From a virus (lineage: Duplodnaviria; Caudoviricetes), in IMG/VR virus record IMGVR_UViG_3300024272_002379: a stretch of DNA of 64,000 nt. One strand, written 5' to 3'. The position numbers and the translations under genes were made by a program. The notes under the pieces are model-generated. The model ran no database searches. It was not told the DNA's origin and saw nothing but the letters and a program-made list of their open reading frames with translations. Positions 311 through 46,159 of the stretch are shown one piece after another. Within the stretch, counting starts at the first letter, position 1. Each line of letters begins with the position of its first letter.

Positions 311-685
311 GGGCCTGTAATGGTATCGACAGGGGCATGAAAGTTATGAGTTCGTCCGAGTGGTGACGCTATCACCAACTTTAAAATTAAACGCAAACAG
401 ACCAATGTTAGCGGCTGCCTAGTTGCAGCTACCAAAACACAGTAAGATATTGCTGGTAACTGTTGAGGTTCAAAAACTAGCATAGTATAAGAAGTTCTCT
501 GTATACAACTTAGTGAACAGAGTGGTGGAGCAAGTAAGAAACCTTACTAGCCTAGTATCTCAGGTCTGGAAGACGATAGCCAGTGAGTGAAAGCTGAGAT
601 GAAATAACTCATTTAAGTTCGTAACGACGTAAAGACTTATAATGAATAATGTTTTTGGACACGGGTTCGACTCCCGTCAGGTCCA
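311..685 (+). ncRNA. ssrA: tmRNA, tag ANRPMLAAA* (393-422)
   Basis: 5' GGGCCTG pairs with 3' CAGGTCC-A with G3.U70; T-arm ACGGG-TTCGACT-CCCGT; GCA resume codon and Ala-rich tag. Confidence 0.95.
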
Positions 686-713
686 CTCTATATTACTATA
701 AGGAGACACAAAT

Positions 714-1559: not shown

Positions 1560-1634
1560 CGGAATGTAGTTCAGCTTGGCTAGAACGCTTGTTTTGGGAA
1601 CAAGAGGTCGCAGGTTCGAATCCTGTCATTCCGA
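1560..1634 (+). tRNA. tRNA-Pro(TGG)
   Basis: cloverleaf; CTTGT-TTTGGGA-ACAAG. Confidence 0.95.
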
Positions 1635-1843
1635 CTAAGACTTTTTGTTACCTCTAAGGCATTCTCTTATACGGGTTCCGTATGGGGGATATAAGGAGCG
1701 AGGCGAACCTGAATCTTCCAGTCTCTAAAGAAGAATGAAGTGGCGTTTATGGTTATTATTTCCTTTGTACGACAACAAAGAAATTTAATTCTTTTTCATT
1801 TTTTGGTGTTCCTTTAGGAATAAAGCTGTCTAACGACAGCTAA

Positions 1844-1923
<80 letters not shown>

Positions 1924-2010
1924 TTTTCAAAACGCCATAGTTTTGGAAAACCTCGTTTGTGTAAAAAATCATCGAACCTGGCAGTGTATAGGTTAACTGC
2001 CACCCCACAT

Positions 2011-2083
2011 GCCCCAATTGCACAGTTGGTAGTGCGACTGATTTGTAATCAGTAGGTCGGCGGTTCGAGTCCGTCTTGGGGCT
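2011..2083 (+). tRNA. tRNA-Thr(TGT)
   Basis: ACTGA-TTTGTAA-TCAGT. Confidence 0.95.
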
Positions 2084-2520
2084 TTGTTACATAAGCATTT
2101 ATGCCCTAAGTAGCAGATAGACATAAATGTGTAACAAAACGATGGTCTGCTATAATCGGTAAAGTTGTTCTATCCTGTATAGAGGTTATTGGGTCCGATT
2201 CAGGTAAAACTAACGAAACAGGACGATTTATTGGCGTACTTTAGTGAAAGCAGAGTCGAGTAACTAAAGAGAAAATCAATACCCAGTTCATCATTCTTTC
2301 TGGGTTACGTGAGACGTTAGTATGGTCTCGCCGTAAAGATTAAGCTGTGATATAGTATCAAAGCTATATTGCGGAATCAGGTAGGATATTTATATCAGAC
2401 CTAACGTATACATAAGTTAAAACGAAGGTAATCCAACAGTGAACCGCAGTACAGAAGGTGGGCCTAGTGTTTGTAATACAAAGTTAGACCGTGCGGGGCT
2501 AATGCATGTTTCTTATGATA
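2084..2520 (+). ncRNA. large structured RNA between tRNAs (possibly ROOL-like)
   Basis: ORF-free, many hairpins (TTGTTACA/TGTAACAA, ACCCAG/CTGGGT, GAGAC/GTCTC), tRNA-island context; family not verified. Confidence 0.45.
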
Positions 2521-2528
2521 CGGTATAT

Positions 2529-2611
2529 GCAGCGTTGTGATAATGGTAGTCGGGCGGTCTTGAAAACCGTTGTGTCGAAAGGCATTGGGAGTTCAAGTCT
2601 CTCACGCTGCG
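2529..2611 (+). tRNA. tRNA-Ser(TGA)
   Basis: GCGGT-CTTGAAA-ACCGT, long variable arm. Confidence 0.93.
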
Positions 2612-2750
2612 TTTGGCTAAGCATAGGTAGCCGTACCCAGATGACGAAACGACAGTCGTCATATAACAAGCCTATTGCAGTTTATCATGTACTAAACATG
2701 AAGGCTCTTCTGTTTTAGATGCCAGTCTGTGCAGGAGGGCCGAAGTCTCT

Positions 2751-2839
2751 GGAGTGTTACTCAAGTTGGTGAAGAGGGAACCCTGCTAAGGTTCTAGCGT
2801 CCATTATGGGCGGCGAAGGTTCGAGTCCTTCACACTCCG
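2751..2839 (+). tRNA. tRNA-Ser(GCT)
   Basis: GAACC-CTGCTAA-GGTTC, long variable arm. Confidence 0.93.
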
Positions 2840-3105
2840 TTAAGGCTGAAGTGCAATGCTAAATTTTTATGTAATAGCACGCCCGTAAAAGACGTTGAGG
2901 TTGAGGACAATGAGTATGGAAGTGGCCTTTCGAGGCCTAACACGAAAGTTTGACAATAAGTACCGAATGCATAAGATTGACCCATCTAAATGCTACGTCA
3001 GTGGGAGGAACTTATGTAAATACGTTGATACTACGAAGAAGTATCTGCTTGGAAAACGAATAGGTCATTCCCGTTTCTAGCATTTCTGTACGAAAACAGA
3101 ATTAA

Positions 3106-3199
3106 CGGAAGGTAGCCTAGTGGCTAGGCTTGTTGCGAAAAAACGGGTGAAAGCAACTGGAAACGCCGTTTGACGTGAGTTCGAATCTCACTCTTCCGT
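3106..3199 (+). ncRNA. tRNA-like RNA with pseudoknot replacing the anticodon arm
   Basis: acceptor CGGAAGG/TCTTCCG, D-arm, T-arm GTGAG-TTCGAAT-CTCAC; GTTGC/GCAAC crossing AAACGG/CCGTTT. Confidence 0.65.
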
Positions 3200-3379
3200 C
3201 TATATCATCAATATCAACTTACAACAGCCATGGTAATGTTGTGAGAGCGTCATAGGAAGACGTTCTTCCTACTTCAAAGAGACTGGAGTATGCAACAATA
3301 GCTGATGAGGCTCATGACCCCATAAATTGCAGGATAAATAAACAGCGTCTGCTGAAAGATGACAAAGATGATATTATTT

Positions 3380-3453
3380 GGACCATTAGCTCAGTTGGTC
3401 AGAGCGGTCGGCTCATAACCGATTGGTCCTTGGTTCGAGTCCAAGATGGTCCA
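3380..3453 (+). tRNA. tRNA-CAT, probably Ile2 (lysidine type)
   Basis: GTCGG-CTCATAA-CCGAT; GGACC acceptor like Firmicute tRNA-Ile2. Confidence 0.88.
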
Positions 3454-3503
3454 CTAAGAACTCAATACGCCTCTTAACAATGCGGACCACGTTGAGTCAA
3501 AAA

Positions 3504-3628
3504 CCTGGGGGAGCTGTGGCAAGCAGCCATCTGATAAATGGTGAGTTAAAATATGAAGATACTTTATATCGGCATATTACTATGGTGAAAACCCATTCAT
3601 TAACTAGGTTCGATTCCTGGCTCCAGGA
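3504..3628 (+). tRNA. atypical tRNA-Ile(GAT) with ~61-nt variable-region insertion
   Basis: acceptor CCTGGGG/CTCCAGG, anticodon arm GCCAT-CTGATAA-ATGGT, T-arm CTAGG-TTCGATT-CCTGG. Confidence 0.6.
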
Positions 3629-3783
3629 CTATAATGCCTAACGGCATTAATATGGAATAGAAACCCCAATCAATTCCGTGTCAAACGAATTTCAAGACTA
3701 CCAGGGGGAACCTAACAAGGCTGTTATTTGTGCTGCTTGTGGCGTTAGGCTGGTAGAAGTAACCTACCCCAATTACAATTAAA

Positions 3784-4488
3784 TATTGTGCTTTAAAATG
3801 CACACATATATCCTGGTGAAGATTGTTTAATCAACATGCCAGGGCATATCTACAGTAAGTATGAAATAATATTCGTTACAGGCTTAGCCAGTATGTTTAT
3901 TATGTAATACTGAGACGTATGAGAACATGGGATACTTTGTTCGGTAGTGCGTTTAACGGATATAAATCAAGTCCTAAGGACGTGGTGAAGTTCTGTTATG
4001 AAGAAGGGAACCCTTCAAACGATTGATATGGCGTAACTTATACATAACGATTAGTGTGACATGCTTTTGGTGAACAGAATAGACGCTCTCTGTGAGAGAA
4101 TAACCCTGGGAACTGGATGAGCTGGTAACTCATTACAGATGGCAGGGAATTACCAAACAAGTTCATTCGCTGTGATACCGAGACAACTCGGAGTATAACG
4201 AAAGCATAAGTCGCAAGTAGCCTAAGGCGATAAAAGAGAATATAACAGTGATAAGATGAATGAATGTATCATCAAAACATATTCTGAACGATTCGGGTGA
4301 AAGCTGGAGGTGCCAATCCTTCATGGGTTTTAGACTGATAAAAGGCTGTTAACCTTTATCAGTTGGGGCAAGAAGTATGGAAGTCATGAGCCATGCTCAG
4401 ACTTGTCTCCCCATTCGCATAATAAATCACAATGTATATTTTATAAGATGAATAAAAGTCTATATGGTGTGTGTTTTAAAGCACAATA
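3784..4488 (+). ncRNA. GOLLD-like giant structured RNA
   Basis: 22-bp terminal helix 3784-3805/4467-4488 (2 G.U), ~705 nt, no ORF, in phage tRNA cluster; 3' half resembles GOLLD as I recall it. Confidence 0.7.
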
Positions 4489-4507
4489 CTAACAGCAACG
4501 GAAACTA

Positions 4508-4536
4508 TTGACATTCCATTGCTGTTTTTGTATAAT
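4508..4536 (+). promoter_or_regulatory. sigma-A promoter
   Basis: TTGACA-17-TATAAT, 12 nt before tRNA-Tyr. Confidence 0.85.
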
Positions 4537-4548
4537 TACAATCAATTC

Positions 4549-4632
4549 GGGTAGGTAGACCGTAGTTGGTAGCGGGCCAGACTGTAAATCTGGTGCCTTC
4601 GGGCTCCGTTAGTTCGATTCTGACCCTGCCCA
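4549..4632 (+). tRNA. tRNA-Tyr(GTA)
   Basis: CCAGA-CTGTAAA-TCTGG. Confidence 0.93.
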
Positions 4633-4819
4633 TTTACATCAAGGACGGTTGGTGACAATTTATTTGTCAAAGGGATAAGGGCAATACATGTTACCGCTTA
4701 TCGTGTAGATGTGTAGTGCAAAGTGTATTGGTGTGAGATTGTTTCCATATTAGAGAAACAGCCAATCTTAAATGTGAAATATCTAATTAGAGAAGGATAA
4801 AGTAACAGCTTTGTATTAT

Positions 4820-4891
4820 AGAATATTAGCTTTAACGGCAAAAGCACACGGCTGATAACCGTGGTCAGCGGTTCGACTCCGCTATATTCTG
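4820..4891 (+). tRNA. tRNA-Ile(GAT)
   Basis: CACGG-CTGATAA-CCGTG; AU-rich acceptor AGAATAT/ATATTCT. Confidence 0.85.
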
Positions 4892-5112
4892 TTCTTTGTG
4901 AGTGTGACTACTTACAATGACCTAAAACGGCTCGTAAACTTGTAGAAAGGGCAGGCCGACGGGTAAGAGTGCCGCAAGTACCAAATAACCCTGAGGGTAA
5001 AACTGGGTTCGCCTCTTTTTGAGCACGGGATGCAGAAAAGAATAGACATCTCTCAAAGTTTAGGTAAATAAACAGCTTAGGTTGGTAACCTCTTAGTCAG
5101 AAATAACCATAT

Positions 5113-5185
5113 TGGGTATTAGCTCAGTCGGCAGAGCACATGGCTGTTAACCATGGTGTCGTAGGTTCGAGCCCTACATACCCAG
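5113..5185 (+). tRNA. tRNA-Asn(GTT)
   Basis: CATGG-CTGTTAA-CCATG. Confidence 0.95.
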
Positions 5186-5487
5186 TTTAAATCAAACTGA
5201 AACGAGTCAGGCCCAATCGCTCGATTAAGTATGTGAGGAAAGTGAGGTTGGTTGCCAGCTTACTCAAGACTTCGTGTGCTTGAGGACAGCCCATTTATGG
5301 GTCCCCACTGGTTGTAAAATGTCTTCGCATTTAAAGTGGTGTTGTAAAATACATTCCGCTTAATCTTTAGTTTGGTTTTATTTGGAGAGACATGTTGTAG
5401 CGGTTTCTACGTATGTACAAAGGCTCTGGACAAGTCTTATTTTTTGAAACAGCAAGCGTGCGATTATCAGGTTAGTCTCTCCAGTAT

Positions 5488-5561
5488 AGCGGGGTAGAGC
5501 AGTCAGGCAGCTCGCAAGGCTCATAACCTTGAGGTCATAGGTTCAAATCCTATCCCCGCCA
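5488..5561 (+). tRNA. tRNA-Met(CAT), initiator-like
   Basis: 1:72 A/C mismatch, GCGGGG acceptor, CAAGG-CTCATAA-CCTTG. Confidence 0.88.
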
Positions 5562-5636
5562 CTCATGAAAACAAGTGATTGTTTTCTGATATCAGGCATT
5601 TATCGGGTTCGAATAGATGTAGGTATTGTTTTTAAT

Positions 5637-5668
5637 CCCCAGTCGAAAGGCTGGGGTATTTTATTTTT
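5637..5668 (+). terminator. intrinsic terminator ending RNA island
   Basis: CCCCAGTC-GAAA-GGCTGGGG then T-rich tail. Confidence 0.8.
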
Positions 5669-5759
5669 GTTGACATTATCTAATCGCTGTGATATATAGT
5701 ATTTATAGGCATAGAGAGCTTATTACAGTATATTTCACTTAGAGAGGAGATTATCAATC

Positions 5760-7787: not shown

Positions 7788-8543
7788 ATGAAAAAACATC
7801 TTTATACAGTACTGACCTTTATGGTCATTCTCGTAATATGGTACAATGCATCATTGATTGCAAATCCATTATTCATTCCTAATCCACTAGCAGTGTGGAA
7901 TGATTTTAAAATACTTGTATCAGATGGCTCTATCTTTATTCATCTTATTTATACCTTCAGGAGAATTATGGTTGCTACATGCTTATCAGGACTTGTCGCA
8001 CTACCGTTAGGGTTATTGGTGCGTAATTTCAAAATAGCAAAAGCAACCATTTATCCTGTAATTATGCTATTACGTTATATACCTGTAACAGCATTCTATC
8101 CATTGCTTATTATGTGGGTTGGTATTGAAGAGGAAATGAAAGTAGCTTTTCTGTTTATCGCATGTTTTGTTTACATGCTCCCATCAGTAGTTCTTGCTCT
8201 TGATGAAGTAAACGACCAGCTTATTGATACAGGATTGACTATTGGAATGAGTAAATTACAAACTATCACCAGAATTCAATTACCATCTACATTACCTAGT
8301 ATTATGAACAGTTTTGTTATGATGGTTGGTATTGGCTGGACATATTGTGCAGTAGTAGAAACAATCAATGCCAAATATGGATTAGGCTACGTAATCCATC
8401 AGGCAACCGCTAGAGGTAAAACTGATTTGGTATTCATGGCTATTATTGCCATTATGATTGTTAGCTTTGTGTTTGATAACACTTGTAAATTTTTAATCCA
8501 TAAGGTATTTAAATGGAGGTACGTTAATGATAAAACTAAATAA
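7788..8543 (+). CDS. ABC transporter permease (NitT/TauT/SsuC family)
   Basis: multi-TM, EAA-like loop, VVE..GLGY. Confidence 0.9.
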   Translation: MKKHLYTVLTFMVILVIWYNASLIANPLFIPNPLAVWNDFKILVSDGSIFIHLIYTFRRIMVATCLSGLVALPLGLLVRNFKIAKATIYPVIMLLRYIPVTAFYPLLIMWVGIEEEMKVAFLFIACFVYMLPSVVLALDEVNDQLIDTGLTIGMSKLQTITRIQLPSTLPSIMNSFVMMVGIGWTYCAVVETINAKYGLGYVIHQATARGKTDLVFMAIIAIMIVSFVFDNTCKFLIHKVFKWRYVNDKTK

Positions 8544-10453: not shown

Positions 10454-12049
10454 ATGAAACAGTACAGAATTACAGGTAAGGCAAAAATTTTAATCATTGT
10501 CTTTGTTATTGTAGTATTGGCAGGACTTATCGGCGGTGGCTTAAAAACAGGCCTTATCAAAAACGACATCAAAGATGGTGGTAGTAATACAGTAGTATCT
10601 CAGGACAGCAATACAGGTTCTAACAAAAAAGAAGAATCTAATGCTACAGTAAAACCAGAAGTAACAGATACAATTAACCTCTCATTAGATGAGTGGATTG
10701 GTTGGAAATCTATTGTAGATGCTAATGGTGATTTAACAACAGATGCAGAAGAAGCTTTTGCTTTAATGGGTATCAATGTAAACATTCATGTTATGAATGA
10801 TGCCACACAGTCAAGTAATGCATTAATCAAAGGTGATTTGGATGCTGCTGGTTATACAATCAACAGAACTGCATTCTTATCTTCTAAGTTTAAAAATGCT
10901 GGCGTAGATGTTGTAATGCCATTCATTACTAACTATTCTAACGGCGGTGACGGTATTATCGCAAAATCAAGTATCAAATCAGTTAATGACTTAGTTGGTG
11001 CTAAAATCGGTGTACCAGAATTCTCTGAGGCTCAGACATTAGTTGTTTGGTTTGTAAACAATTCTAACTTAACTCAGGCAGAAAAAGATACAATTATCGA
11101 CAATCTTATTATGTTTGCAACTCCAGATGAAGCCGCTAAAGCGTTCTTCTCAGGACAGGTTGATGTAGCTGCTACATGGGAACCATATTTAACACAGGCT
11201 GAAAATATGACAGATTGCCATATCTTATTTAGTACAGCAAGTTCTTCAAATCTTGTAATGGATGGTATCTTATTCCGTAAGGATTTCGTAGATGCTAATC
11301 CAGAAACTGTAGAAAAATTCATTATGGCTTGTTTAATGGCTGCTGATAAATATGAAACAGATTTCGATGCAATCAGAAAAGTTATGCCTATGTATTCTAC
11401 AATGTCTGATGAAGACATTAAGGCAAACTGTGTTGCTGCTAAGTTAACAACATGGAAAGATAATGCTGATTTATTAAACGGAACTGCTAAGATTATGTAC
11501 ACAGACATGTGTGAAGTATGGCAGTCTATCGGTGAAGAAGTCGATGCAAGTATCGTAGATACTTTATTTGATGATAAATACATTCAGAATATCGCTTTTA
11601 ATTTCAGCAGTACAGATTCATCTTATGATACAGGTAAAACTCAGGTAACAGAAGAGAATAAACAGATTATTGCTGATACACAGGCATTACTTGGCGGTAC
11701 AGCATCTGTAACATTCGAGAAGAATACAGCTAAATTCTCTGATTCTGCCGCTGCTTCTGCTGAACTTAATAAGTTTATTGAAATGGCAAAAGTACTTGAC
11801 GGTGCTATTATCGAGATTGCTGGTAATACAGACCCAAATCCTAACAGCGACCCTCTCGATGAGTACAATAAGAAATTGTCTTCTCAGAGAGCTGAAGCTG
11901 TTAAGAATTACTTCATCATGAACGGTATTTCTGCTGATAGAATTGTTACGGTTGGTAACGGTTCAAGCAATCCTATCGTTGATAACGATACAGAAGAGCA
12001 TCGTGCAATGAATCGTCGTACAGACGTATCATTTAAAATTATTGAATAA
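10454..12049 (+). CDS. ABC substrate-binding protein fused to OmpA/MotB-like peptidoglycan-binding domain
   Basis: SNGGDGIIA, DVAATWEPY; C-terminal GNTD..YNKKLSSQRAEAV..NRR. Confidence 0.88.
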   Translation: MKQYRITGKAKILIIVFVIVVLAGLIGGGLKTGLIKNDIKDGGSNTVVSQDSNTGSNKKEESNATVKPEVTDTINLSLDEWIGWKSIVDANGDLTTDAEEAFALMGINVNIHVMNDATQSSNALIKGDLDAAGYTINRTAFLSSKFKNAGVDVVMPFITNYSNGGDGIIAKSSIKSVNDLVGAKIGVPEFSEAQTLVVWFVNNSNLTQAEKDTIIDNLIMFATPDEAAKAFFSGQVDVAATWEPYLTQAENMTDCHILFSTASSSNLVMDGILFRKDFVDANPETVEKFIMACLMAADKYETDFDAIRKVMPMYSTMSDEDIKANCVAAKLTTWKDNADLLNGTAKIMYTDMCEVWQSIGEEVDASIVDTLFDDKYIQNIAFNFSSTDSSYDTGKTQVTEENKQIIADTQALLGGTASVTFEKNTAKFSDSAAASAELNKFIEMAKVLDGAIIEIAGNTDPNPNSDPLDEYNKKLSSQRAEAVKNYFIMNGISADRIVTVGNGSSNPIVDNDTEEHRAMNRRTDVSFKIIE

Positions 12050-15899: not shown

Positions 15900-15912
15900 A
15901 TATAACACATAT

Positions 15913-15984
15913 AGGGCTATCGCCAAGCGGTAAGGCACAGGATTTTGATTCCTGCATCCGTTGGTTCGAATCCAACTAGCCCTG
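15913..15984 (+). tRNA. tRNA-Gln(TTG)
   Basis: CAGGA-TTTTGAT-TCCTG. Confidence 0.93.
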
Positions 15985-16069
15985 TTCATAGTGGTCAGTG
16001 TTAATGCACACTGTAAATAAAGTAGCCTCTCGATTGGCTTTCAATGGTCAGCTTTAACCACTATAACAT

Positions 16070-16244
16070 ACACGGGTTGTCTGAGCTGGTGAGAGATGAT
16101 ATCTTATCAATAGGCCAGTGAACTAGGTGCCAACCACTCTGATTAGAGTAGGGACATGTGAAAGTTATAAGGGAAGGAACGCTGATACGTAGCATTGTTT
16201 TGGTAACTTGATGAGTAGTAGAGGTTCGATTCCTTGCCCGTGTG
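16070..16244 (+). ncRNA. tRNA-like RNA with ~100-nt insert in place of anticodon arm
   Basis: ACACGGGT/GCCCGTGT acceptor, GAGG-TTCGATT-CCTT T-arm, CTTATCAA/TTGATGAG helix. Confidence 0.55.
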
Positions 16245-16259
16245 TTAAAGACCAAGCAA

Positions 16260-16332
16260 AGGTAAGTAGCTCAGTTGGGAGAGCACCCTGCATTGAGCGG
16301 GGTCGTCGCAGGTTCGAGTCCTGCCTTGTCTT
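16260..16332 (+). tRNA. atypical tRNA (loop CATTGAG, nominal TTG; identity uncertain)
   Basis: canonical D/T arms, A at position 33, two G.U in acceptor. Confidence 0.6.
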
Positions 16333-16494
16333 GATATAAGCTGAAGTCTTGAAGCCAAGTATAGTCATGCGGTGGGTGGATATTTACATTAGGTCCAATG
16401 AGATTAGACTTTAGTATCTATCAAATAGAACTGTTGACTAAAAATAATGCCCAGCAAAAACCATATGCTGGGCTATTTTATTGGAGGAAATTAT

Positions 16495-17043: not shown

Positions 17044-17097
17044 CACTTAGCCCCTTCCTAACGGAAGGGGCTTAAAATCTTATAGGAGGTGAATATC

Positions 17098-19081: not shown

Positions 19082-19345
19082 ATGAACGAAAATAAGTTAT
19101 TGGCAGACATCTGGAAAATTAAAACATTACAGGAAATATTCAGTAGTGCAGAAATTTTTACATATACAGAATCATTCATTATTGATGCATTTGCTGAAAA
19201 ACACCACATCAAAAACGAGAATAGTGAACTTATCTTACTGTTAGAAGAAATGTATACGAAAAATCCAGATAAGATTCCTACTATCATGGAATTATTGGAA
19301 ATCTGTAAAGAAAGCAATTTGATTGAGGAGGTAGAAAATGGCTAA
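19082..19345 (+). CDS. hypothetical protein
   Basis: RBS. Confidence 0.65.
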   Translation: MNENKLLADIWKIKTLQEIFSSAEIFTYTESFIIDAFAEKHHIKNENSELILLLEEMYTKNPDKIPTIMELLEICKESNLIEEVENG

Positions 19346-19751
19346 GTTTAATATTTACGCCGTTGCTTACGGCATTAATCCAGAAACAAAACAACCTACA
19401 TTCTGTCATAAATTTCGTACATGGGATGAATGTAAACCTTATGTAGTTGGAGTTGAGGGAGCGAAATACAAAGGATTCTTCACTGAAACCGAGGCTGATA
19501 TGTGGTTGGAAAAAACTGTTCAGGATTTGGTTCAGGTTAATGAAAAAGACAAAGAAACTGAATATGTACCAGCTATTGAAATCATTGCTGCTCATGGTGT
19601 GGATGAATTTGAGGTACTGTGTGCTAATCTTCACTTAGATTCTCATACCGTTACACAGTTTCTTAAGAAGCAGTTTGTTGAGCAATACAGATTCCTTTGT
19701 GATAATACAATTGATGTATCTGATATATCAACTAAAACATCAACCGAATAA
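19338..19751 (+). CDS. RNase H1 N-terminal hybrid-binding (viroplasmin) domain protein, no catalytic domain
   Basis: YAVAYG..FRTWDECKPYVVGVEGAKYKGF..EA..WL. Confidence 0.8.
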   Translation: MAKFNIYAVAYGINPETKQPTFCHKFRTWDECKPYVVGVEGAKYKGFFTETEADMWLEKTVQDLVQVNEKDKETEYVPAIEIIAAHGVDEFEVLCANLHLDSHTVTQFLKKQFVEQYRFLCDNTIDVSDISTKTSTE

Positions 19752-19780
19752 CTTTGTCTTGAGCCGAATGGACATAGTTT

Positions 19781-19823
19781 CTCCCCCTAGCCCCGAAAAA
19801 ATAAAAGCTAGGGGGAGATTTTT
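19781..19823 (+). terminator. GC-rich hairpin/terminator
   Basis: TCTCCCCCTAGC/GCTAGGGGGAGA then TTTTT. Confidence 0.7.
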
Positions 19824-20365
19824 ACTTTGTCTCTCGCATTAAGACAGTATCTTTAGTTTGACTGTTATCTCAAACAATCCTCATACCCACATCCATGACG
19901 TTCCGTATGTGTAATCTCTAAATATAGATAACTAACATATACATCTATATGTTATTCAAGTATTTATATTATCATTGAGATAATGGTATGAGCTCCCTAT
20001 TTTTATATCATGGCCCACGAACCCGTCGTCTGTTTTATTATTGAAATAATGAGGATGACCGACGTAGCTTCCTCTACAGTATGCGTAAGATACTCCGCTA
20101 TACTGCAACCGAGATTTTCTGAATGAGCTCTCGACACCACTACCGTTTATTATCCTGTGTGCGTCACCACAGTTATCTATTATTATACAGGTTTAATCCT
20201 GTCGTATTTACTAATAATCTAGTATAATCACTTAAAGCTGATTGGCACTTATCGTCTATCTGGGTTATTTTATTATACGTAGCATATAGACTTTATCTAC
20301 GTAATGATTATAAGTATTAATACATTTTTGATATGTATGCACATGTCTATGCAATTTTTGACATT

Positions 20366-20394
20366 AAAAAAGACCGTATCTGAATGATACAGTC
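20366..20394 (-). terminator. minus-strand intrinsic terminator (attenuator-like)
   Basis: GACUGUAUC/GAUACGGUC + U6 on the minus strand; the U.G pair forms only in that polarity. Confidence 0.7.
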
Positions 20395-20424
20395 ATACTT
20401 AATACACATATCTTGTAAAGAATA

Positions 20425-20453
20425 TTGACAACACTATGGCAAAATGCTATAAT
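20425..20453 (+). promoter_or_regulatory. consensus sigma-A promoter
   Basis: TTGACA-17-TATAAT with extended TG. Confidence 0.85.
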
Positions 20454-20551
20454 TATATAAATTCAATACATTTCTATGTTTGGTATTCACTCTACCATTC
20501 AGAACCTAACTTGATACTTGCAATATCAATTAGGAGTTTTGTATTAATGCT

Positions 20552-20580
20552 ATGGTAGCATAGCTACCAATGAAAGTCAA
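20552..20580 (-). promoter_or_regulatory. convergent minus-strand promoter
   Basis: TTGACT-17-TACCAT with TG on the minus strand. Confidence 0.6.
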
Positions 20581-20605
20581 GCTCATTCTTCGGAATGAGC
20601 TTTTT
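20581..20605 (+). terminator. intrinsic terminator of short + RNA
   Basis: GCTCATTC-TTCG-GAATGAGC-TTTTT. Confidence 0.8.
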
Positions 20606-20635
20606 CTATGAGCAAAAATAAAAGGAGGTAACACC

Positions 20636-20797
20636 ATGATACTTAAAGCTGGAGAATCGTATACTGTAGAGCTTATAGTTACTATAGAAGAAGATGTTGA
20701 TGAAGCAGTAATAGATGCTACAATTACAAATGCTCTCTATAATGATACACCAACAGAATCATTGACTATTGGCCATTATGAAGAGTTAACTATATAA
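20636..20797 (+). CDS. 53-aa hypothetical protein (not in ORF track)
   Basis: AGGAGG RBS, open frame. Confidence 0.55.
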   Translation: MILKAGESYTVELIVTIEEDVDEAVIDATITNALYNDTPTESLTIGHYEELTI

Positions 20798-20827
20798 AAT
20801 TCCTAACGGAATAGTAAATAGAATATT

Positions 20828-31650: not shown

Positions 31651-33036
31651 ATGGCATCAGCATCTAGCAATTTAGATTTCAGCGGTTTTGATGATTTATT
31701 TAAGGACATGGGTGTAAGCGAAAGCCCTTCTAATGCTGCTATGGAAGCATCAATCGCAAATGAGCAGAATGTTACAGCACAGCCAGTGCAGGTTGATGGA
31801 ATTCAGATTCAGAATGTAAATGCACCTATTAATCCAGCACTTGTTCAGTCTGGTCAGGTGAAAATGCAGCAGATTTTCGTAGAAATGAACAATCTTTTCG
31901 TAGAAAGAGATACATTGATTAAGTTAATGCAGTTAGCTGTTGTTACAGGTACTAACCTTTTAATGTTAGGCCCTCCTGGTACTGCTAAATCAGCTATTAC
32001 TTATGAACTTTGCGGTAGAGTAGAAAATGCTAACTACTTCCAGTGGATGTTAAATAAGACTTCTGACCCATCAGAAGTATTTGGTCCATTCTCTGTTAAA
32101 GAAATGGAAAATGATAAATTCATGCGTATTACAACAGGTAAGTTACCTGAGGCACATATTGCGTTCATGGATGAGGTATTTAAATCAAATGCCCCTACCT
32201 TAAATGCATTGTTAACTATTATGAATGAACATATCTTCTACAACGACGGTAAGCCACAGCCTGTTCCGTTAATCTCTATGTTCGGTGCTTCTAATGAGCC
32301 ACCAGAAGATGAAACTTTGGATGCTATGTACGACCGTTTCATTTTCCGTATCAATGTTCAGTACATTCATGATGCAGCTAACAAAAAGCGTATGCACGCT
32401 AACTATGTAGACAACAGAGCTGGTTTACTCGGTCTTGCAGGTAAGACTACAATTACTTTAGCTGAATTACAGGCTTTACAGGAAGCTTCTAAATCAGTAA
32501 AAGTTCCAAAAGATATTATCAACAAGTTCATTCGTCTTATCAGTGATTTAGACCGTCAGGCTATTCACGTATCTGATAGACGTCAGAATGAATGTTTCAA
32601 GGTAATGCAGGGTAACGCAGTTCTTGCAGGTAGAAACGTAGTAGGTCTTGATGACTTTAAATCTCTCATCTATGTATTATGGGAGAAAGAAGAGCACATT
32701 CCTATGATTGAATCTGCAATTCTTAAGATGGTTAATCCTTATGATGACCGCTTCAAAGAACTTAAAGAGAACTTCAGTCAGGTTAAGACAGATATCGACA
32801 GCATCTCAGATTCATCTCAGAAATCTAAGAAAGCAATCGAATCTAAGGGTGTAATCGAGAAAATCGTAAGCAAGACAAACAAGCTCATCAACGAAGCATC
32901 TAAGAATGGTAAAGATGTAACTGAATTTACAGAGTTCAGAGATGAAATGATTCAGTACAATCAGAAATTAATCTCTGCTGCTCTCGGTACTGCATTCGGT
33001 GGCTTTGGTGATGATGATAGCGATAGTCCCTGGTAA
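31651..33036 (+). CDS. MoxR/RavA-type AAA+ ATPase
   Basis: GPPGTAKS, EVFGP, FMDEVFK, ASNE, YDRF, SDRR. Confidence 0.92.
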   Translation: MASASSNLDFSGFDDLFKDMGVSESPSNAAMEASIANEQNVTAQPVQVDGIQIQNVNAPINPALVQSGQVKMQQIFVEMNNLFVERDTLIKLMQLAVVTGTNLLMLGPPGTAKSAITYELCGRVENANYFQWMLNKTSDPSEVFGPFSVKEMENDKFMRITTGKLPEAHIAFMDEVFKSNAPTLNALLTIMNEHIFYNDGKPQPVPLISMFGASNEPPEDETLDAMYDRFIFRINVQYIHDAANKKRMHANYVDNRAGLLGLAGKTTITLAELQALQEASKSVKVPKDIINKFIRLISDLDRQAIHVSDRRQNECFKVMQGNAVLAGRNVVGLDDFKSLIYVLWEKEEHIPMIESAILKMVNPYDDRFKELKENFSQVKTDIDSISDSSQKSKKAIESKGVIEKIVSKTNKLINEASKNGKDVTEFTEFRDEMIQYNQKLISAALGTAFGGFGDDDSDSPW

Positions 33037-33121
33037 TTCGCTAAAATATACGACAACATTTACCATTAACAACAATGCAGTTGTTAATATGACTTTTTAT
33101 TAACCAGAAAGGGAAAAATAA

Positions 33122-34957
33122 ATGGGAAACTTAGACAATTTAGGTTTTGATGAATTATTGGAAGAACTTGATGAGATTGCAAATATCTCACAGTCTTCTG
33201 TTTCAACAAACAGTGTTTCGCCAGCTCAGAAAAAGGTTGGTGGTTTTCAGGATATGTCATCAGAAGAAATTGAGCAGTTTCAGAGTTCCCAGGAATATAA
33301 AGAGTATAAAGCAGATATTGAAGAGGCTGTAAGTACACCTGCAAATTTTAAAGGTAAGACTGTTCAGGAAATTATGGGTTTATCCAATAGAAAAGATACT
33401 ATTGGATATTCCTATAATGCATTGGAGCATTATGATGTTGACATTGACATCTATCAGGACATTGTTGACCAGTCACCTGTTATGCAACAGACGTTGGAAG
33501 AGGGCGAGGAACTTCTTCCAACGTTTAAGTATTTACATCAAGATATCTTCTTAAGTCTTTATAAGTATAAAGCAAGAGTACTTCCTGAGACAGAAATGCA
33601 CATTTCTACACGTATGAATCGTGGTATTATTAGTAATTTGATTAACACACCAGAGTATATCTCATTGCGTCAGACTTGTCGTATGGACCAGTTTAATGCT
33701 GCATTAGGTACAGAGATTATTGGTAGAGAAGCTATTGACATTCTAAGAGAAGCCATTGATAAAATCAAAGACCTTCAGAAAAAGAAAGATGCAATGGACA
33801 GACTTCTTGAAGAAGAAGAAAAGATGGATGCTCTCATGGAAGAAATTGGCGATATTGATGAGCTAATCGAAGATGCTAAGCGTCAGGGTAATGGTGCTTA
33901 TGCCGCTCAGCTTGCTGCTGATAGACAAGCTAAAGAAGAGGCCGTTGCTCGACTTAAAGCAATGGCTAACAAGATTGCTGAAGAATGTGACGAACTTCTT
34001 GATGATGATGAATTAGCATCTGAAGTAAGTACTGTTATGGGTAGTACATTATCCCAGACAGGTCAGGAAGTACAGGAAGTATCTGACTTATGTCAGGCAT
34101 GGGGATTAGGTACTGGTGAAAACTGTCACGTTGCTTTCCAGAACAAGAAAGATGCAATTGAGCGTATTAGACGTTCCTCTAAATTAAATAAGCTTACTGA
34201 TTTAGTTGGTAGATTTAAAGAATCTGCCATTACTGAACAGAAAAAGAAAGCTAAACATGGTGCAGTTGAAATTAAATCTGTAACTGTTGGTAGTAGAGTA
34301 GAAGATACATTACCTTCAGACAGAATGAATCTTTGCAATGACACAACAAAGAAAGATTTCTATCGTCGTATGACAGAAAATCAGTTGATGACATACAGCA
34401 AAGAGGCACACAAACAGAAGAACAAAGGTCCAATTATCGTATGTGTTGATACTTCTGGTTCAATGCAGGGTGATGAGGAAATCTGGAGTAAAGCTCTTAC
34501 TGTAGGTATTCTTGAAGTTGCTCAGATGCAGAAACGTGACTTTGCTTGTATTATTTACAGTAGTCATGCTGACGCACCAATTGTTATCAAGAAAGATGAA
34601 ATTGCTCCTCAGAAGATTATTAATTGTGCCGAACGATTTCATAATGGCGGTACAAGCTTCGAGGCACCATTAAATGAAGCCCTTGAGTTAATTAAGGACT
34701 CAACATTTAAGAATGCTGATATCGTATTCATTACTGACGGTGATTGTTACGTATCAGATAGTTTCAGTCGTAAATTCAAACAGATGAAAGAAGAGAAAGA
34801 CTTTAAGACTCTCGGTGTATTAGTAAACATGGGTAGAGGTCATGTATCTGATAGCAGCTTGAAAGAATTCTGTGATAGTATTACACTAGTTAGTGATATT
34901 GCAGATTTGAAGGATAGTAGTTCAGATGTAAATAAGTCTATCTTTGGTGCATTATAA
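33122..34957 (+). CDS. vWA-domain protein (ViaA-like)
   Basis: MIDAS DTSGS, GGTSF, FITDG. Confidence 0.9.
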   Translation: MGNLDNLGFDELLEELDEIANISQSSVSTNSVSPAQKKVGGFQDMSSEEIEQFQSSQEYKEYKADIEEAVSTPANFKGKTVQEIMGLSNRKDTIGYSYNALEHYDVDIDIYQDIVDQSPVMQQTLEEGEELLPTFKYLHQDIFLSLYKYKARVLPETEMHISTRMNRGIISNLINTPEYISLRQTCRMDQFNAALGTEIIGREAIDILREAIDKIKDLQKKKDAMDRLLEEEEKMDALMEEIGDIDELIEDAKRQGNGAYAAQLAADRQAKEEAVARLKAMANKIAEECDELLDDDELASEVSTVMGSTLSQTGQEVQEVSDLCQAWGLGTGENCHVAFQNKKDAIERIRRSSKLNKLTDLVGRFKESAITEQKKKAKHGAVEIKSVTVGSRVEDTLPSDRMNLCNDTTKKDFYRRMTENQLMTYSKEAHKQKNKGPIIVCVDTSGSMQGDEEIWSKALTVGILEVAQMQKRDFACIIYSSHADAPIVIKKDEIAPQKIINCAERFHNGGTSFEAPLNEALELIKDSTFKNADIVFITDGDCYVSDSFSRKFKQMKEEKDFKTLGVLVNMGRGHVSDSSLKEFCDSITLVSDIADLKDSSSDVNKSIFGAL

Positions 34958-42179: not shown

Positions 42180-42704
42180 ATGGCAGTGAAGAAAACAATT
42201 GCCGTACTTGGTCCAGATGGAGTTTATCTTAGTCATTGTACATGGAATAGGGCATTAAGCCTACTGGAATCTAAAAGAGCCATTAGACTTGATGCCACTA
42301 CTGTACGTTTAAAGCAAACAAAGAAAGAACGCATAAGAAAAAAGCATGACATAATTGCTGAATCAAAAAGAATCTGTTATATTTGTAATACTCAAATCCC
42401 GATTGAGGAAACTGCAACTATTGACCACATTATTCCAAAGTCAAGGGATAGAAGAGCAGATGTATACTCAAATATGAGATGTTGCTGTAGTCGTTGTAAT
42501 AATGACAAAGGAAATATGACACTTTCTGAATATGTAGAACATATGTTAAAACACAGAGAGGATTATTTGTACATCTCAGACAAGCGGCTAAGATATCTTG
42601 AAAGATTTGCACAATGCTATGAAGAAGAATTCTATAGCCAAAAGAGGATACATATAAAAGATTTAAAGACACCATGTAAGAAGAGGAGAAGAAGGCGAAG
42701 ATGA
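42180..42704 (+). CDS. HNH endonuclease with RRXRR-like N-terminus
   Basis: CYIC..TIDHIIPKS..N..CSRCNNDKG. Confidence 0.88.
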   Translation: MAVKKTIAVLGPDGVYLSHCTWNRALSLLESKRAIRLDATTVRLKQTKKERIRKKHDIIAESKRICYICNTQIPIEETATIDHIIPKSRDRRADVYSNMRCCCSRCNNDKGNMTLSEYVEHMLKHREDYLYISDKRLRYLERFAQCYEEEFYSQKRIHIKDLKTPCKKRRRRRR

Positions 42705-45700
42705 TAGAATTTGCTCATATACATTGTCACACTAAATATTCTATTCATGATGCTATTCCCAGTCATAAAGCTTATGTTGATGCTATTTACGAACAAAATC
42801 AAAACAGCAGTAAGTATCATTGCGTTGGGTTTGCAGCGACGGACCATGGTAATATTTATGGACTAGTAAAACATTATAATGCATGTAACAATCCCGACCA
42901 TAAAGAACGAAAAACTAAGGCACTATATGGTTGTGAAGTCTATCATTGTATTGATGTTGAAAATAACCCAAATAATGACAGATTTCATCTTGTTCTTATA
43001 GCAACAACTCAAGAAGGTTTGACCAATTTATATGAAATAGTATCTCACGCAGGAACTAATATCATACACGGCAGACAAAAAGATTTTCCAGTAACAGACC
43101 TTAAATTCATGTCAACACATGGTAAGGGTATTGTTGCTTTAACTGCTTGTGCTGGAGGTATTGTTCCAACATGTATTATTAATGGTCAAGATAAAGATGC
43201 ATTAATGTACATTGATACATTGGCTAATATCTTTGATGAGGTTTATCTCGAAGTACAGCCACACGATTTCCCTGAGCAGTTAATAGTAAATAATGCTTTG
43301 GTAAGCATATCAGCTCAAACAGGATATAAGTTAGTAATGACTTCAGATAGTCATTACATCCATTCAGGTGATGACCAATATCATAATATTTTGAAAAACA
43401 TGTGTCATCAAAAATTATTCACAACAAATAACCATTTGTTTACACCAGAAGAAATGGAAGATTATTGTATTAAGAACAATATTCCATTGGAATGTATTAG
43501 TAATACAGCAGAGATAGCTAAATTAGCTAATGTAGACCCAAAACCAAAAGACCATAATGCTTTGTTACCAGTATTCCCTTGTCCACCTGGATATGATGAA
43601 TCTTCATATCTTAGAAAACTTTCGTATGAAAAGTTACAAGAGAAACTTATCAAGAACAATATTAAAAATCCATCAAAGTATATCAAGCAAATGACTTACG
43701 AACTTGAAATTATTTGTAATGCAGGTTTCGCTGGTTACTTCTTGATATTGTGGGATTGGTTTGAATGGTGTAGAGCTAACGATATTCTTTGCGGACCAGG
43801 AAGAGGTAGTGCCGCAGGAAGTATTATTTCTTATGCATTAAATATTACTAAGGTAGACCCTATTAAGAATGGTTTCTTCTTTGAACGTTTCTTAAATGCA
43901 GGACGTTTAGAGTTCCCTGATATTGATACTGATATTCCACGTAGTCGTAGAGCAGACGCTATTAAGTATTTGCTAAGTAAATACGGAGTACAAAATGTAT
44001 CTCAGATTATTACCTTTGGGGAATATAAGTTAAAAAATACAATTAAATCAATTATGTCTTTCTTAGGTTGCCCATTCCAAGAATCTAATGAGGTAACAAA
44101 AGGCATTCCTGACATGATTGATGGACACACAGTAACATATGAATTCATAGAAGATGTGGTTAATAACCCAGATAGTGAAAAATATGCTGGTTTAACTGAT
44201 GGAGAAAAGCAAAATCTTGTAAGAATTTATGACAAACTTAAAGATTTATTCCAAAAGTATCCAGTTGTATATGCTGGTGTATTAAACCTAAAGGGTTGTA
44301 TATCAAATACTGGAATTCATGCAGGTGGTGTAATTATATCGAACAAACCGATAAATCAAAATGCTGCTATCATTGACGGTGGAGATACAGCCGTTCTGCC
44401 TTTAATTCAGTTTGAAATGGCAGACTTAGATTTCTTCGGTTTCTTAAAGATTGACGTATTAGGATTAAAGACTCTTGACGTAATTAAAGCAACAATGGAT
44501 TTAGCTGGATTGGGATATGATTGGTACGATTCAGAAGATTATAGTGACCCAGCGGTATACGATATGCTTCGGGCTGGAGAAACAACAGATGTCTTCCAGA
44601 TGTCAAGTTACCAACCAACTTCCATGTTAGCTGACTTCGATGTACGTGACATTGACGGTATATGTGCGGTTAACGCTGGTAACAGACCAGGACCTCTTGA
44701 GAAAGATGCAACCACAGGAAAGTCAATGGTTGATTTGTATATCGAACGTAGAAGAACGGGTGTCATTGAAAGTTGGCATCCAGATATTGACCCAATTCTT
44801 AAAGATACAATGGGATGTATTTGGTATCAGGAACATTGTATTAAGATAGGACAGGTTATGGCAGGATACGATTTAGGTAGTGCCGATTTACGTATTCGTA
44901 AACCATTGGGTAAAAAGTTAAAAAAGAAGATACCAGAAATCAAAAACGAGTTCATTTATGGGAAACAATCAGAATATGATGAAGACCATAATGTAATCGG
45001 CATGAAGAATGAGCCGTCTCAATATTGTGTAGGTAGTCTTGCAAGAGGATACAGTCAGGAATTATCTGAAAAAGTATTTGATTCAATGGAAGCTTTTGCA
45101 AAATATGCTTTTAACCGTTCACACAGTTTCTGTTATGCCGTTGTTGGTTATAAGACAGCAGATTTGTCTTGTCATTACCCTCTTGAATTTGCTATTGCGA
45201 ACTGTACTGTTAATGAAGACCAAGAAAACATTACGTCAACATTAACATTAGCAAAGAAGCGTAAGATAGATATACTTCCGCCAGACATTAATAAATCTCA
45301 GGTAGGCTTTAGTATAGATAACGGATGTATTCGTTATGGACTTAAGGCTATCAAAGGTGTTGGTACATCTGTATTAAACTTCATTAGAGAGTATAAAAAG
45401 ATGGACTCAGTACCTTTTGCAGACTTTGATGATTATTATAATCGAATTCATGATGCTACAAATCCAGTTGTTGTTTTGCTACTTGATGCATTAAGAAATC
45501 AAACTGGTAAAAACAGTCCAAACCCTATGAAGAAAGACGTAGAGGTTGCTTTAATATTATCTGGTGCATTTGATTATTGTGAACCTAATCGTTTTGCATT
45601 GTTAAACCACTATATGATAGATATTAAGAAAGAAAAGACTGTAAAGATTATGGGTGAAGAGAATCCACGTACACTACCGTTGGATGTAAAAGAATACAAG

Positions 45701-46159
45701 CGTAAGACTAAACTTGCTCTTGAGAAACATTATATGGGTAGTTATATTTCAGAGCATCCATTAGACCCATTCCCATATGCAGATTTTGAATCAGCACAGG
45801 AAAATGAAGTTATCAGAACAACTGGTATTGTTACAGCAGTTGTTTCTAAACTTACAAAGAGAGGTAAAGAATACCTTTCTATAAAATTTAAAACAAAAGA
45901 TGATGTTGAGCGTACAGTAAATGTATTTGATGAAACCTTAACTCAAACCTTGAAACAAAATATCAAGAAGAACCAGATTATTATTGTCAAAGGTAAGGTA
46001 AGCAAAAAGTTCAATAACATTAATGCTACGGACGTATCGCCAGTAGCATTTAAAAAACAATCAATTGACGTTGAGGATATCGAAATAGAAGATAGAACAG
46101 CTAAAGTAGAACAACCAATGATTGTTGCTCAGCCAGTAGAATTTGGTAGTATTTTTTAA
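42701..46159 (+). CDS. dnaE: DNA polymerase III alpha (DnaE type)
   Basis: PHP HCHTKYS, GRGSAAGS, PDIDTD, KIDVLGL, FNRSH. Confidence 0.97.
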   Translation: MIEFAHIHCHTKYSIHDAIPSHKAYVDAIYEQNQNSSKYHCVGFAATDHGNIYGLVKHYNACNNPDHKERKTKALYGCEVYHCIDVENNPNNDRFHLVLIATTQEGLTNLYEIVSHAGTNIIHGRQKDFPVTDLKFMSTHGKGIVALTACAGGIVPTCIINGQDKDALMYIDTLANIFDEVYLEVQPHDFPEQLIVNNALVSISAQTGYKLVMTSDSHYIHSGDDQYHNILKNMCHQKLFTTNNHLFTPEEMEDYCIKNNIPLECISNTAEIAKLANVDPKPKDHNALLPVFPCPPGYDESSYLRKLSYEKLQEKLIKNNIKNPSKYIKQMTYELEIICNAGFAGYFLILWDWFEWCRANDILCGPGRGSAAGSIISYALNITKVDPIKNGFFFERFLNAGRLEFPDIDTDIPRSRRADAIKYLLSKYGVQNVSQIITFGEYKLKNTIKSIMSFLGCPFQESNEVTKGIPDMIDGHTVTYEFIEDVVNNPDSEKYAGLTDGEKQNLVRIYDKLKDLFQKYPVVYAGVLNLKGCISNTGIHAGGVIISNKPINQNAAIIDGGDTAVLPLIQFEMADLDFFGFLKIDVLGLKTLDVIKATMDLAGLGYDWYDSEDYSDPAVYDMLRAGETTDVFQMSSYQPTSMLADFDVRDIDGICAVNAGNRPGPLEKDATTGKSMVDLYIERRRTGVIESWHPDIDPILKDTMGCIWYQEHCIKIGQVMAGYDLGSADLRIRKPLGKKLKKKIPEIKNEFIYGKQSEYDEDHNVIGMKNEPSQYCVGSLARGYSQELSEKVFDSMEAFAKYAFNRSHSFCYAVVGYKTADLSCHYPLEFAIANCTVNEDQENITSTLTLAKKRKIDILPPDINKSQVGFSIDNGCIRYGLKAIKGVGTSVLNFIREYKKMDSVPFADFDDYYNRIHDATNPVVVLLLDALRNQTGKNSPNPMKKDVEVALILSGAFDYCEPNRFALLNHYMIDIKKEKTVKIMGEENPRTLPLDVKEYKRKTKLALEKHYMGSYISEHPLDPFPYADFESAQENEVIRTTGIVTAVVSKLTKRGKEYLSIKFKTKDDVERTVNVFDETLTQTLKQNIKKNQIIIVKGKVSKKFNNINATDVSPVAFKKQSIDVEDIEIEDRTAKVEQPMIVAQPVEFGSIF

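Follow-up and report, generated by a model that had tools for sequence, protein, structure and literature searches.

Every long open reading frame (ORF) in the window, the 64,000-nucleotide (nt) stretch analyzed here (IMG/VR virus record IMGVR_UViG_3300024272_002379, part of a ~213-kb metagenomic contig), lies on the plus strand. A gap of 884 nt without a conserved ORF runs from the stop codon of a 137-amino-acid gene (19338-19751), whose product carries an RNase H1-type hybrid-binding domain, to a start codon at 20636. An earlier note on this DNA had placed convergent promoters, an antisense RNA, and an attenuator in this gap. We find that the promoters, terminators, hairpins, and hybrid-binding-domain gene that it named are all present within a few bases of where it put them, and that the convergent arrangement is backed, at the level of sequence comparison, by conservation in 10 relatives, variable promoter spacers, and compensatory changes in stems. 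Comparison identifies two structured RNAs and the strand of each, both of their terminators, one of the two promoters, and a covarying antiterminator. The cassette that these features make up is oriented against all of the surrounding genes.

The gap and its relatives

The hybrid-binding-domain protein has 38 homologues in a large protein collection, and we fetched the DNA for 12 of their loci. An ORF-free gap of 860 to 1,110 nt lies behind the hybrid-binding-domain gene in 11 of these loci, either immediately or with one to three small genes in between. The exception, L150, encodes a more distant homologue (43% identical) among tightly packed genes with no element. Our comparison of the element covers 11 distinct sequences, the window and 10 relatives; locus L001 is an identical copy of the window, and L002 is its closest relative. 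The gap DNA of the 10 relatives is 77 to 89% identical to the window element over 79 to 100% of its length, while the flanking coding DNA is mostly only 6 to 48% alignable (the exceptions are L002 and a downstream block in L137), which makes the gap the most conserved sequence of its neighborhood. The flanking hybrid-binding-domain protein is 42 to 75% identical. The element is single copy both in the window and in G001 (the same locus as L006), a complete relative from IMG/VR of 208,433 bp with a 123-bp terminal overlap and a CheckV completeness of 100%.

Searches of broader collections returned little. Neither GenBank phages (blastn of the region) nor PLSDB plasmids (blastn of the element) gave a match, and two element-specific patterns found 0 matches in 185,579 GTDB species-representative bacterial and archaeal genomes. 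A search of IMG/VR with the flanking proteins found nothing, and one with DNA patterns recovered G001 as the only true relative. We rejected loci L011 to L014 as chance 17-mer matches, and likewise the 120 stretches L015 to L134 from a metagenome scan in which the 14-mer proved too short, chance matches of which none matched the element by blastn. Rfam 15 covariance models, among them those for ROOL, GOLLD, OLE, HEARO, raiA, 6S, and group I/II introns, placed the gap in no family (the best E values, 0.9 to 8.5, fell far under the gathering scores) and found nothing in the elements of five relatives; a search of the gap for transfer RNA (tRNA) and transfer-messenger RNA (tmRNA) genes found none. 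Five independent assemblies (L004, L008, L009, L010, and L137) stop close to the tRNA region, 1 to 4.5 kb ahead of the hybrid-binding-domain gene, at what may be an assembly-breaking repeat or a true genome end.

Two structured RNAs on opposite strands

The plus-strand promoter, P+ (20425-20453), matches the sigma-70/sigma-A consensus at 12 of 12 positions (TTGACA, a 17-nt spacer, and the extended -10 TGcTATAAT), with a predicted start at ~20460. All 11 sequences keep TTGAC(A/T) and TGnTATAAT while the spacer between them varies freely, a pattern that fits a real promoter. The predicted product is a small RNA (sRNA) of ~145 nt (20460-20607, plus strand) with hairpins at 20481-20497, 20505-20534, and 20553-20569, followed by a terminator at 20579-20602 that consists of a 10-bp stem and a T-run. 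Folded as a single sequence, the sRNA has a z score of -4.9, and its consensus fold shows compensatory changes in 15 of 43 pairs, the terminator stem included. The first 86 nt of the sRNA (20460-20545) are antisense to the leader of a minus-strand RNA.

The candidate promoter of that minus-strand RNA, P- (20580-20552, minus strand), is placed inside the plus sRNA gene and adjoins the plus terminator. It reads TTGACT, 17 nt, and TGcTACCAT, a 9/12 sigma-70 match with the TG of an extended -10, and its predicted start is ~20545. None of the 11 sequences, the divergent L135 included, departs from this -35 hexamer or from the 17-nt spacing, and the -10 keeps TAnnnT in all 11 (it is TATCAT in L136). 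From P-, a minus RNA of up to ~776 nt would run through its leader, an intrinsic terminator at 20394-20364, a core at 20353-19843, and a long hairpin at 19771-19831.

The minus terminator, a candidate attenuator, sits directly 5' of the core and is composed of a 9-bp stem (20394-20386/20380-20372), the loop AUUCA, and a U-run (20371-20364). A hairpin of -9.5 to -14.2 kcal/mol followed by six to eight U residues is present in 10 of the 10 relatives that keep this terminator, and its stem covaries. In a shuffle test, terminator-like sites were enriched in the region (8, versus 1.3 in shuffles), and promoter-like sites were not (15 versus 17.6).

Upstream in the leader, the segment CUGAAUGGUA (20502-20493, minus strand) is complementary to UAUCAUUCAG (20389-20380), which runs from the last four bases of the terminator's 5' arm through the loop to the first base of the 3' arm. 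Because of this complementarity, and because both segments covary, we interpret 20502-20493 as an antiterminator strand. In the RNAalifold consensus, the leader adopts this long-range helix. On alignment A4, which we used to score minus-strand covariation and which does not include L135, the 10 pairs of the helix are 96% paired, with two compensatory and two one-sided (G.U wobble) pairs. In L137, two positions are changed on both sides of the helix; L136 lacks part of the motif, and another stretch of its leader pairs with the same terminator arm at -17.6 kcal/mol. The antiterminator duplex is predicted at -16 to -24 kcal/mol in all 10 relatives. The plus sRNA covers the antiterminator strand (20493-20502) and carries UACCAUUCAG, a decamer identical to the antiterminator's target in the terminator, and it would thus compete for the antiterminator as a pairing partner. 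We also noted a complementarity between an arm of the plus terminator and the loop 20117-20129 (repeat D2), which shows no covariation in the relatives and which we take as chance.

The sequence beyond the terminator, described in the earlier note as some 580 nt of hairpins, resolves into one strongly covarying minus-strand RNA fold. Its core of ~510 nt is a multi-junction structure of ~20 helices, among them 20316-20306/20219-20209, 20107-20096/20085-20075, 19992-19985/19887-19880, and 19970-19959/19933-19921. We scored a structure of 200 pairs in which the core is joined by the hairpin of the leader, the antiterminator, and the hairpin at the 3' end. Two-sided compensatory changes occur in 51 pairs and 96.8% of the cells are paired, values that 0 of 500 shuffles reached, and slid controls gave no more than 10 compensatory pairs. 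No ORF is conserved on either strand of the gap across the relatives. Insertions and deletions shift the frames from one relative to another, and we therefore rejected a coding role for the minus RNA.

Several lines of evidence assign each RNA to its strand. Many invariant G.U pairs in the minus structure would be mismatches on the opposite strand, and in 10 of 10 sequences the core folds 6 to 23 kcal/mol better as the minus than as the plus strand, a bias that is absent from the sRNA region. We also counted non-Watson-Crick pairs in helices predicted identically on both strands. Across 19860-20352, pairs that would be A.C on the plus strand and G.U on the minus strand prevail by ~22 independent events to 7. 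Across 20466-20601 the asymmetry is reversed, with G.U on the plus strand outnumbering A.C by ~11 events to 2.

The minus RNA probably ends at the long hairpin (19771-19831), for which we have both an inverted repeat and alignments A3 and A4. Its inner stem (19780-19791/19807-19818, the G5/C5 hairpin) is an inverted repeat with 12-nt arms that are 100% complementary, and its outer stem pairs 19771-19778 with 19824-19831. The inner stem is identical in the seven A4 sequences that carry it; L135 has one arm change, and the L010 clade has a different hairpin at this position. A TTTTT run follows the hairpin on the plus strand, from which we conclude that it probably terminates the upstream operon, and since a T-run follows it on the minus strand too in most relatives, the minus RNA probably has its 3' end there. 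One hairpin would thus serve both transcripts.

Proposed antisense gating and its alternatives

At a probability of roughly 60%, and judging from comparative data, we read the gap as a cassette that encodes a new large ornate RNA under antisense gating. P- (20580-20552), a host-type promoter of moderate strength, would start the minus RNA near 20545, and the leader of ~180 nt would fold in two mutually exclusive ways. In the first, 20502-20493 would pair with 20389-20380, and the polymerase would read on into the ~510-nt ornate RNA and stop at 19771-19831. In the second, the terminator at 20394-20364 would form and transcription would end there. P+ (20425-20453), a much stronger promoter facing P-, would make the ~145-nt sRNA, perfectly complementary to the leader over its first 86 nt. 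By annealing to the leader as it emerges, the sRNA would release the terminator arm. Production of the ornate RNA would consequently be largely confined to periods with little sRNA, such as the first stage of infection or times when few genome copies are present. Some promoter occlusion of P- would be expected in addition, since the plus transcript crosses P- before it ends at the P- -35. The firing of P-, termination driven by the sRNA, and the role of the ornate RNA are steps that we infer from this arrangement. Our best guess, by analogy with phage-borne ornate RNAs such as ROOL, is that the product acts as a folded RNA, possibly together with the neighboring protein, which would bind duplexes and hybrids.

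Several observations weigh against this reading. P- has a weak -10 (TACCAT) and matches the consensus at just 9 of 12 positions, and its conservation is not independent proof of a promoter because it overlaps the third hairpin of the sRNA and abuts the plus terminator. L135 keeps the core, both promoters, and the plus terminator without a GC-rich minus terminator, and gating is therefore not universal. In this natural attenuator variant (5256-5717 of its own sequence), ~260 nt of AT-rich DNA stand in place of the sRNA/leader body. When the full leader is folded to minimum energy, roughly half of the sequences form the antiterminator and the others the terminator, a split that fits a switch without demonstrating one. 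The core could also have its own start at a phage-specific promoter, which a sigma-70 scan would miss. Finally, the sample is small: the 11 distinct sequences fall into about three or four clades.

Two of these observations, the 9/12 match of P- and the survival of the core in L135 without the terminator, also speak for the main rival, which we consider unlikely, although it is the best placed of the alternatives. According to this explanation, the gap holds two independent RNA genes with no coupling between them; the core starts at an unrecognized promoter just upstream of 20353, and the terminator at 20394-20364 only insulates it against stray antisense transcription. Such independent genes would leave the covarying 10-bp complementarity of 20502-20493 with the terminator arm and loop unexplained, and they give no reason why the hexamers of P- should be kept in L135. 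We found no conserved sigma-70 promoter between the minus terminator and the ornate core in the compared sequences. A minus promoter-like site at 20299-20272 and a TATAAT at 20309-20314 were rejected as promoters: both fall within covarying helices (the TATAAT is part of one with G.U variants), and their hexamers are not conserved.

Doubtful, and less probable than independent genes, is the explanation closest to the proposal in the earlier note, an RNA-primed origin that works without a Rep protein. The long minus RNA would here act as a pre-primer or transcript primer, with no need for an initiator protein, at an R-loop origin in the vicinity of the G5/C5 hairpin (about 19770-19860); the sRNA would sense dosage and control copy number through the attenuator, and the hybrid-binding protein would stabilize, protect, or mark the RNA-DNA hybrid. 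If correct, this would be an initiator-less, RNA-controlled origin in a virulent-looking phage of ~210 kb. Transcript-primed origins are known in T4, T7, and pAMbeta1. The geometry of the gap parallels that of ColE1 RNA II/RNA I and of Inc18 attenuation, an antisense negative-feedback loop is typical of replicons, and the G5/C5 stem is identical wherever A4 sequences carry it, though the L010 clade replaces it.

The synteny of the hybrid-binding-domain gene with the element (11 of 12 loci) also favors priming. A Pfam search of its 137-amino-acid product (19338-19751, plus strand) found the Cauli_VI/RNase H1 N-terminal domain (PF01693; E = 6.7e-10; residues 7-56) as the sole domain. An AF2 model superposes on the hybrid-binding domain of human RNase H1 (3bsu) with a TM of 0.87 by target and a root-mean-square deviation of 1.2 Å. 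The product lacks a nuclease domain, and the small helical domain at the C terminus has no structural match in the PDB.

Much of the remaining evidence runs against an origin at this site. We found no iterons, direct-repeat families, or DnaA-box-like sites in the gap, and ~20 covarying helices suggest the function of a folded RNA rather than a hybrid. L150 has a homologue of the hybrid-binding-domain protein and no element. The phage encodes its own replisome within a replication and recombination block on the plus strand (40967-61037), which contains a beta clamp (from 40967), a DnaE-type polymerase of 1,152 amino acids (42701-46159), RecA (47989), a UvrD helicase (49752), a fused SbcD/SbcC-like nuclease-ATPase (54778), and a DnaG primase (59796). 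The GC-skew check that had been suggested, run on the complete relative G001, showed no turn at the element. The cumulative skew has its minimum at ~184 kb and its maximum at ~63 kb, exactly where gene orientation switches. Across the element (11.0-11.9 kb) the skew is monotonic, and the turning points are 34 kb and 52 kb distant. Because the skew follows transcription and gene orientation, we take this result as an absence of support and not as a refutation of an origin. Gene orientation in G001 diverges at ~185 kb and converges at ~63 kb, and the divergent point is the better origin candidate by skew.

The suggestion that the element marks a phage-plasmid found no support either. Protein searches of G001 returned no integrase, no ParB, no AAA_31-type ParA, and no RNase H catalytic domain. 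With no integrase or Par genes in G001 and no copy of the element in the bacterial genomes and plasmids searched, nothing points to a plasmid or lysogenic life for the phage.

Very improbable is a function at the level of DNA (protein operators, a packaging site, or a cruciform) in place of RNA genes. Sequence identity is very high, and a perfect palindrome in the spacer of P- (TGGTAGC-ATA-GCTACCA, 20553-20569) could serve as an operator, but compensatory changes occur throughout the ~20 helices, canonical promoters and terminators bracket both units, and the wobble asymmetry is strand specific and switches strand between the two parts, as expected of single-stranded folding and not of sites in duplex DNA. 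The least probable explanation, a type I toxin-antitoxin pair in which the mRNA of a small toxic peptide meets an antisense RNA, has in its favor that convergent overlapping transcripts are typical of such pairs, and it fails on the frame shifts between relatives, which leave no conserved small ORF on either transcript.

Known systems and the biology of the phage

The closest regulatory parallels to an antisense-gated cassette come from plasmids. The antisense RNAs of pT181 and pIP501 are established to induce terminator formation in the leader of the rep gene (PMC5703833). As in pT181 (RNAI/II-repC) and pIP501/pAMbeta1 (RNAIII-repR/repE), the 5' leader of the sense RNA is overlapped here by a predicted cis antisense RNA that has a strong promoter and a terminator of its own. 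The leader likewise has mutually exclusive antiterminator and terminator folds, computed in our case, and in the plasmids the antisense RNA favors the terminator (PMC5703833). The promoter style, with its extended -10, is that of Gram-positive hosts, as in the comparison with pT181 and pIP501. The gap departs from these systems in what it would gate, a ~510-nt noncoding RNA in place of a rep gene, with no conserved ORF downstream of the attenuator. It departs from them also in its carrier, a phage of ~210 kb in which we found no plasmid or lysogeny genes, in the absence of an adjoining Cop-type repressor gene, and in its lack of sequence similarity to any PLSDB plasmid.

Two other plasmid systems share part of the layout. 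In prgQ/prgX of the Enterococcus plasmid pCF10, which includes the Anti-Q RNA and the IRS1 attenuator, antisense-induced termination and transcriptional interference control gene expression and not replication. Its face-to-face promoters and overlapping transcripts resemble ours, whereas regulator-protein and peptide-signaling genes are missing here and the payload is noncoding. In ColE1, a stronger promoter yields a short antisense RNA (RNA I) that covers the 5' end of a long noncoding sense RNA (RNA II), as do the predicted transcripts of the gap over their 86-nt overlap. Control in ColE1, however, acts on R-loop formation and not on an intrinsic terminator, and a ColE1-type replicon has a mapped origin at which it needs RNase H and Pol I from the host; we found no origin feature here.

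In its 500- to 800-nt size class, its many covarying helices, and its carriage by phage, the ornate RNA is akin to ROOL, GOLLD, and OLE (PMC12286853, PMC5737381). Unlike those families, it has no Rfam match even at E values up to 10. We know of no description of ROOL, GOLLD, or OLE being transcribed against the surrounding genes behind an antisense-controlled attenuator.

The phage itself, with a genome of roughly 210 kb, belongs to an uncharacterized jumbo-phage lineage, as judged by its DnaE-type polymerase, whose best match among GenBank phages (Moorella phage MTATph1) is merely 32% identical. The window also encodes a ROOL RNA (3788-4481, plus strand; 231 bits in Rfam), and the phage would thus hold two unrelated large structured RNAs. 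A tmRNA with the tag ANRPMLAAA occupies 311-688 (plus strand), and 12 tRNA genes lie in the window, in the regions 1560-5562 and 15912-16333. Two sets of genes are unusual cargo for a phage: a 531-amino-acid protein with an NMT1/periplasmic-binding-like domain and an OmpA domain (10454-12049, plus strand), and a MoxR-type AAA ATPase followed by a VWA-domain protein (31651-34957, plus strand).

A small plus-strand hairpin with a UAAC loop (ATTCC-UAAC-GGAAT, 20799-20812) lies ahead of the ribosome-binding site of the gene that follows the gap. In most relatives this hairpin stands directly 3' of the plus terminator, whereas the window has a 53-codon ORF (20636-20797, plus strand) between the two. 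This ORF, which has a strong Shine-Dalgarno sequence, turned up in the window and its identical copy L001 alone, and the nine relatives that align past the plus terminator have no room for it. Copies of the hairpin (TTCC-TAAC-GGAA) occur at 20799-20812, 17054-17067, and 3634-3647 in the window and at 8357, 11888, and 45732 in G001, 20 to 30 nt before the ribosome-binding sites of a few genes, where they are perhaps a processing or regulatory site. The motif ATTCCTAACGGAAT was rejected as a general phage promoter, as there are just two to three copies per genome.

Large, highly structured RNAs without an assigned function are rare in bacteria and their phages, and the gap adds a family of roughly 510 to 780 nt, strongly supported by covariation, from an uncultured lineage of jumbo phages in which ROOL also occurs. 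An antisense-gated cassette would be, to our knowledge, the first case of a plasmid-style countertranscript attenuator that gates a phage noncoding RNA instead of a rep gene. The proposed switch is compact and defined by sequence (two promoters, a 10-bp antiterminator, and a terminator) and is thus directly testable in vitro, and the conserved pairing of the element with a gene for a hybrid- and duplex-binding protein is a concrete lead to function. If the reading is correct, the dose and timing of the ornate RNA must be tightly limited in the life of the phage, perhaps to a pulse at the start of infection.

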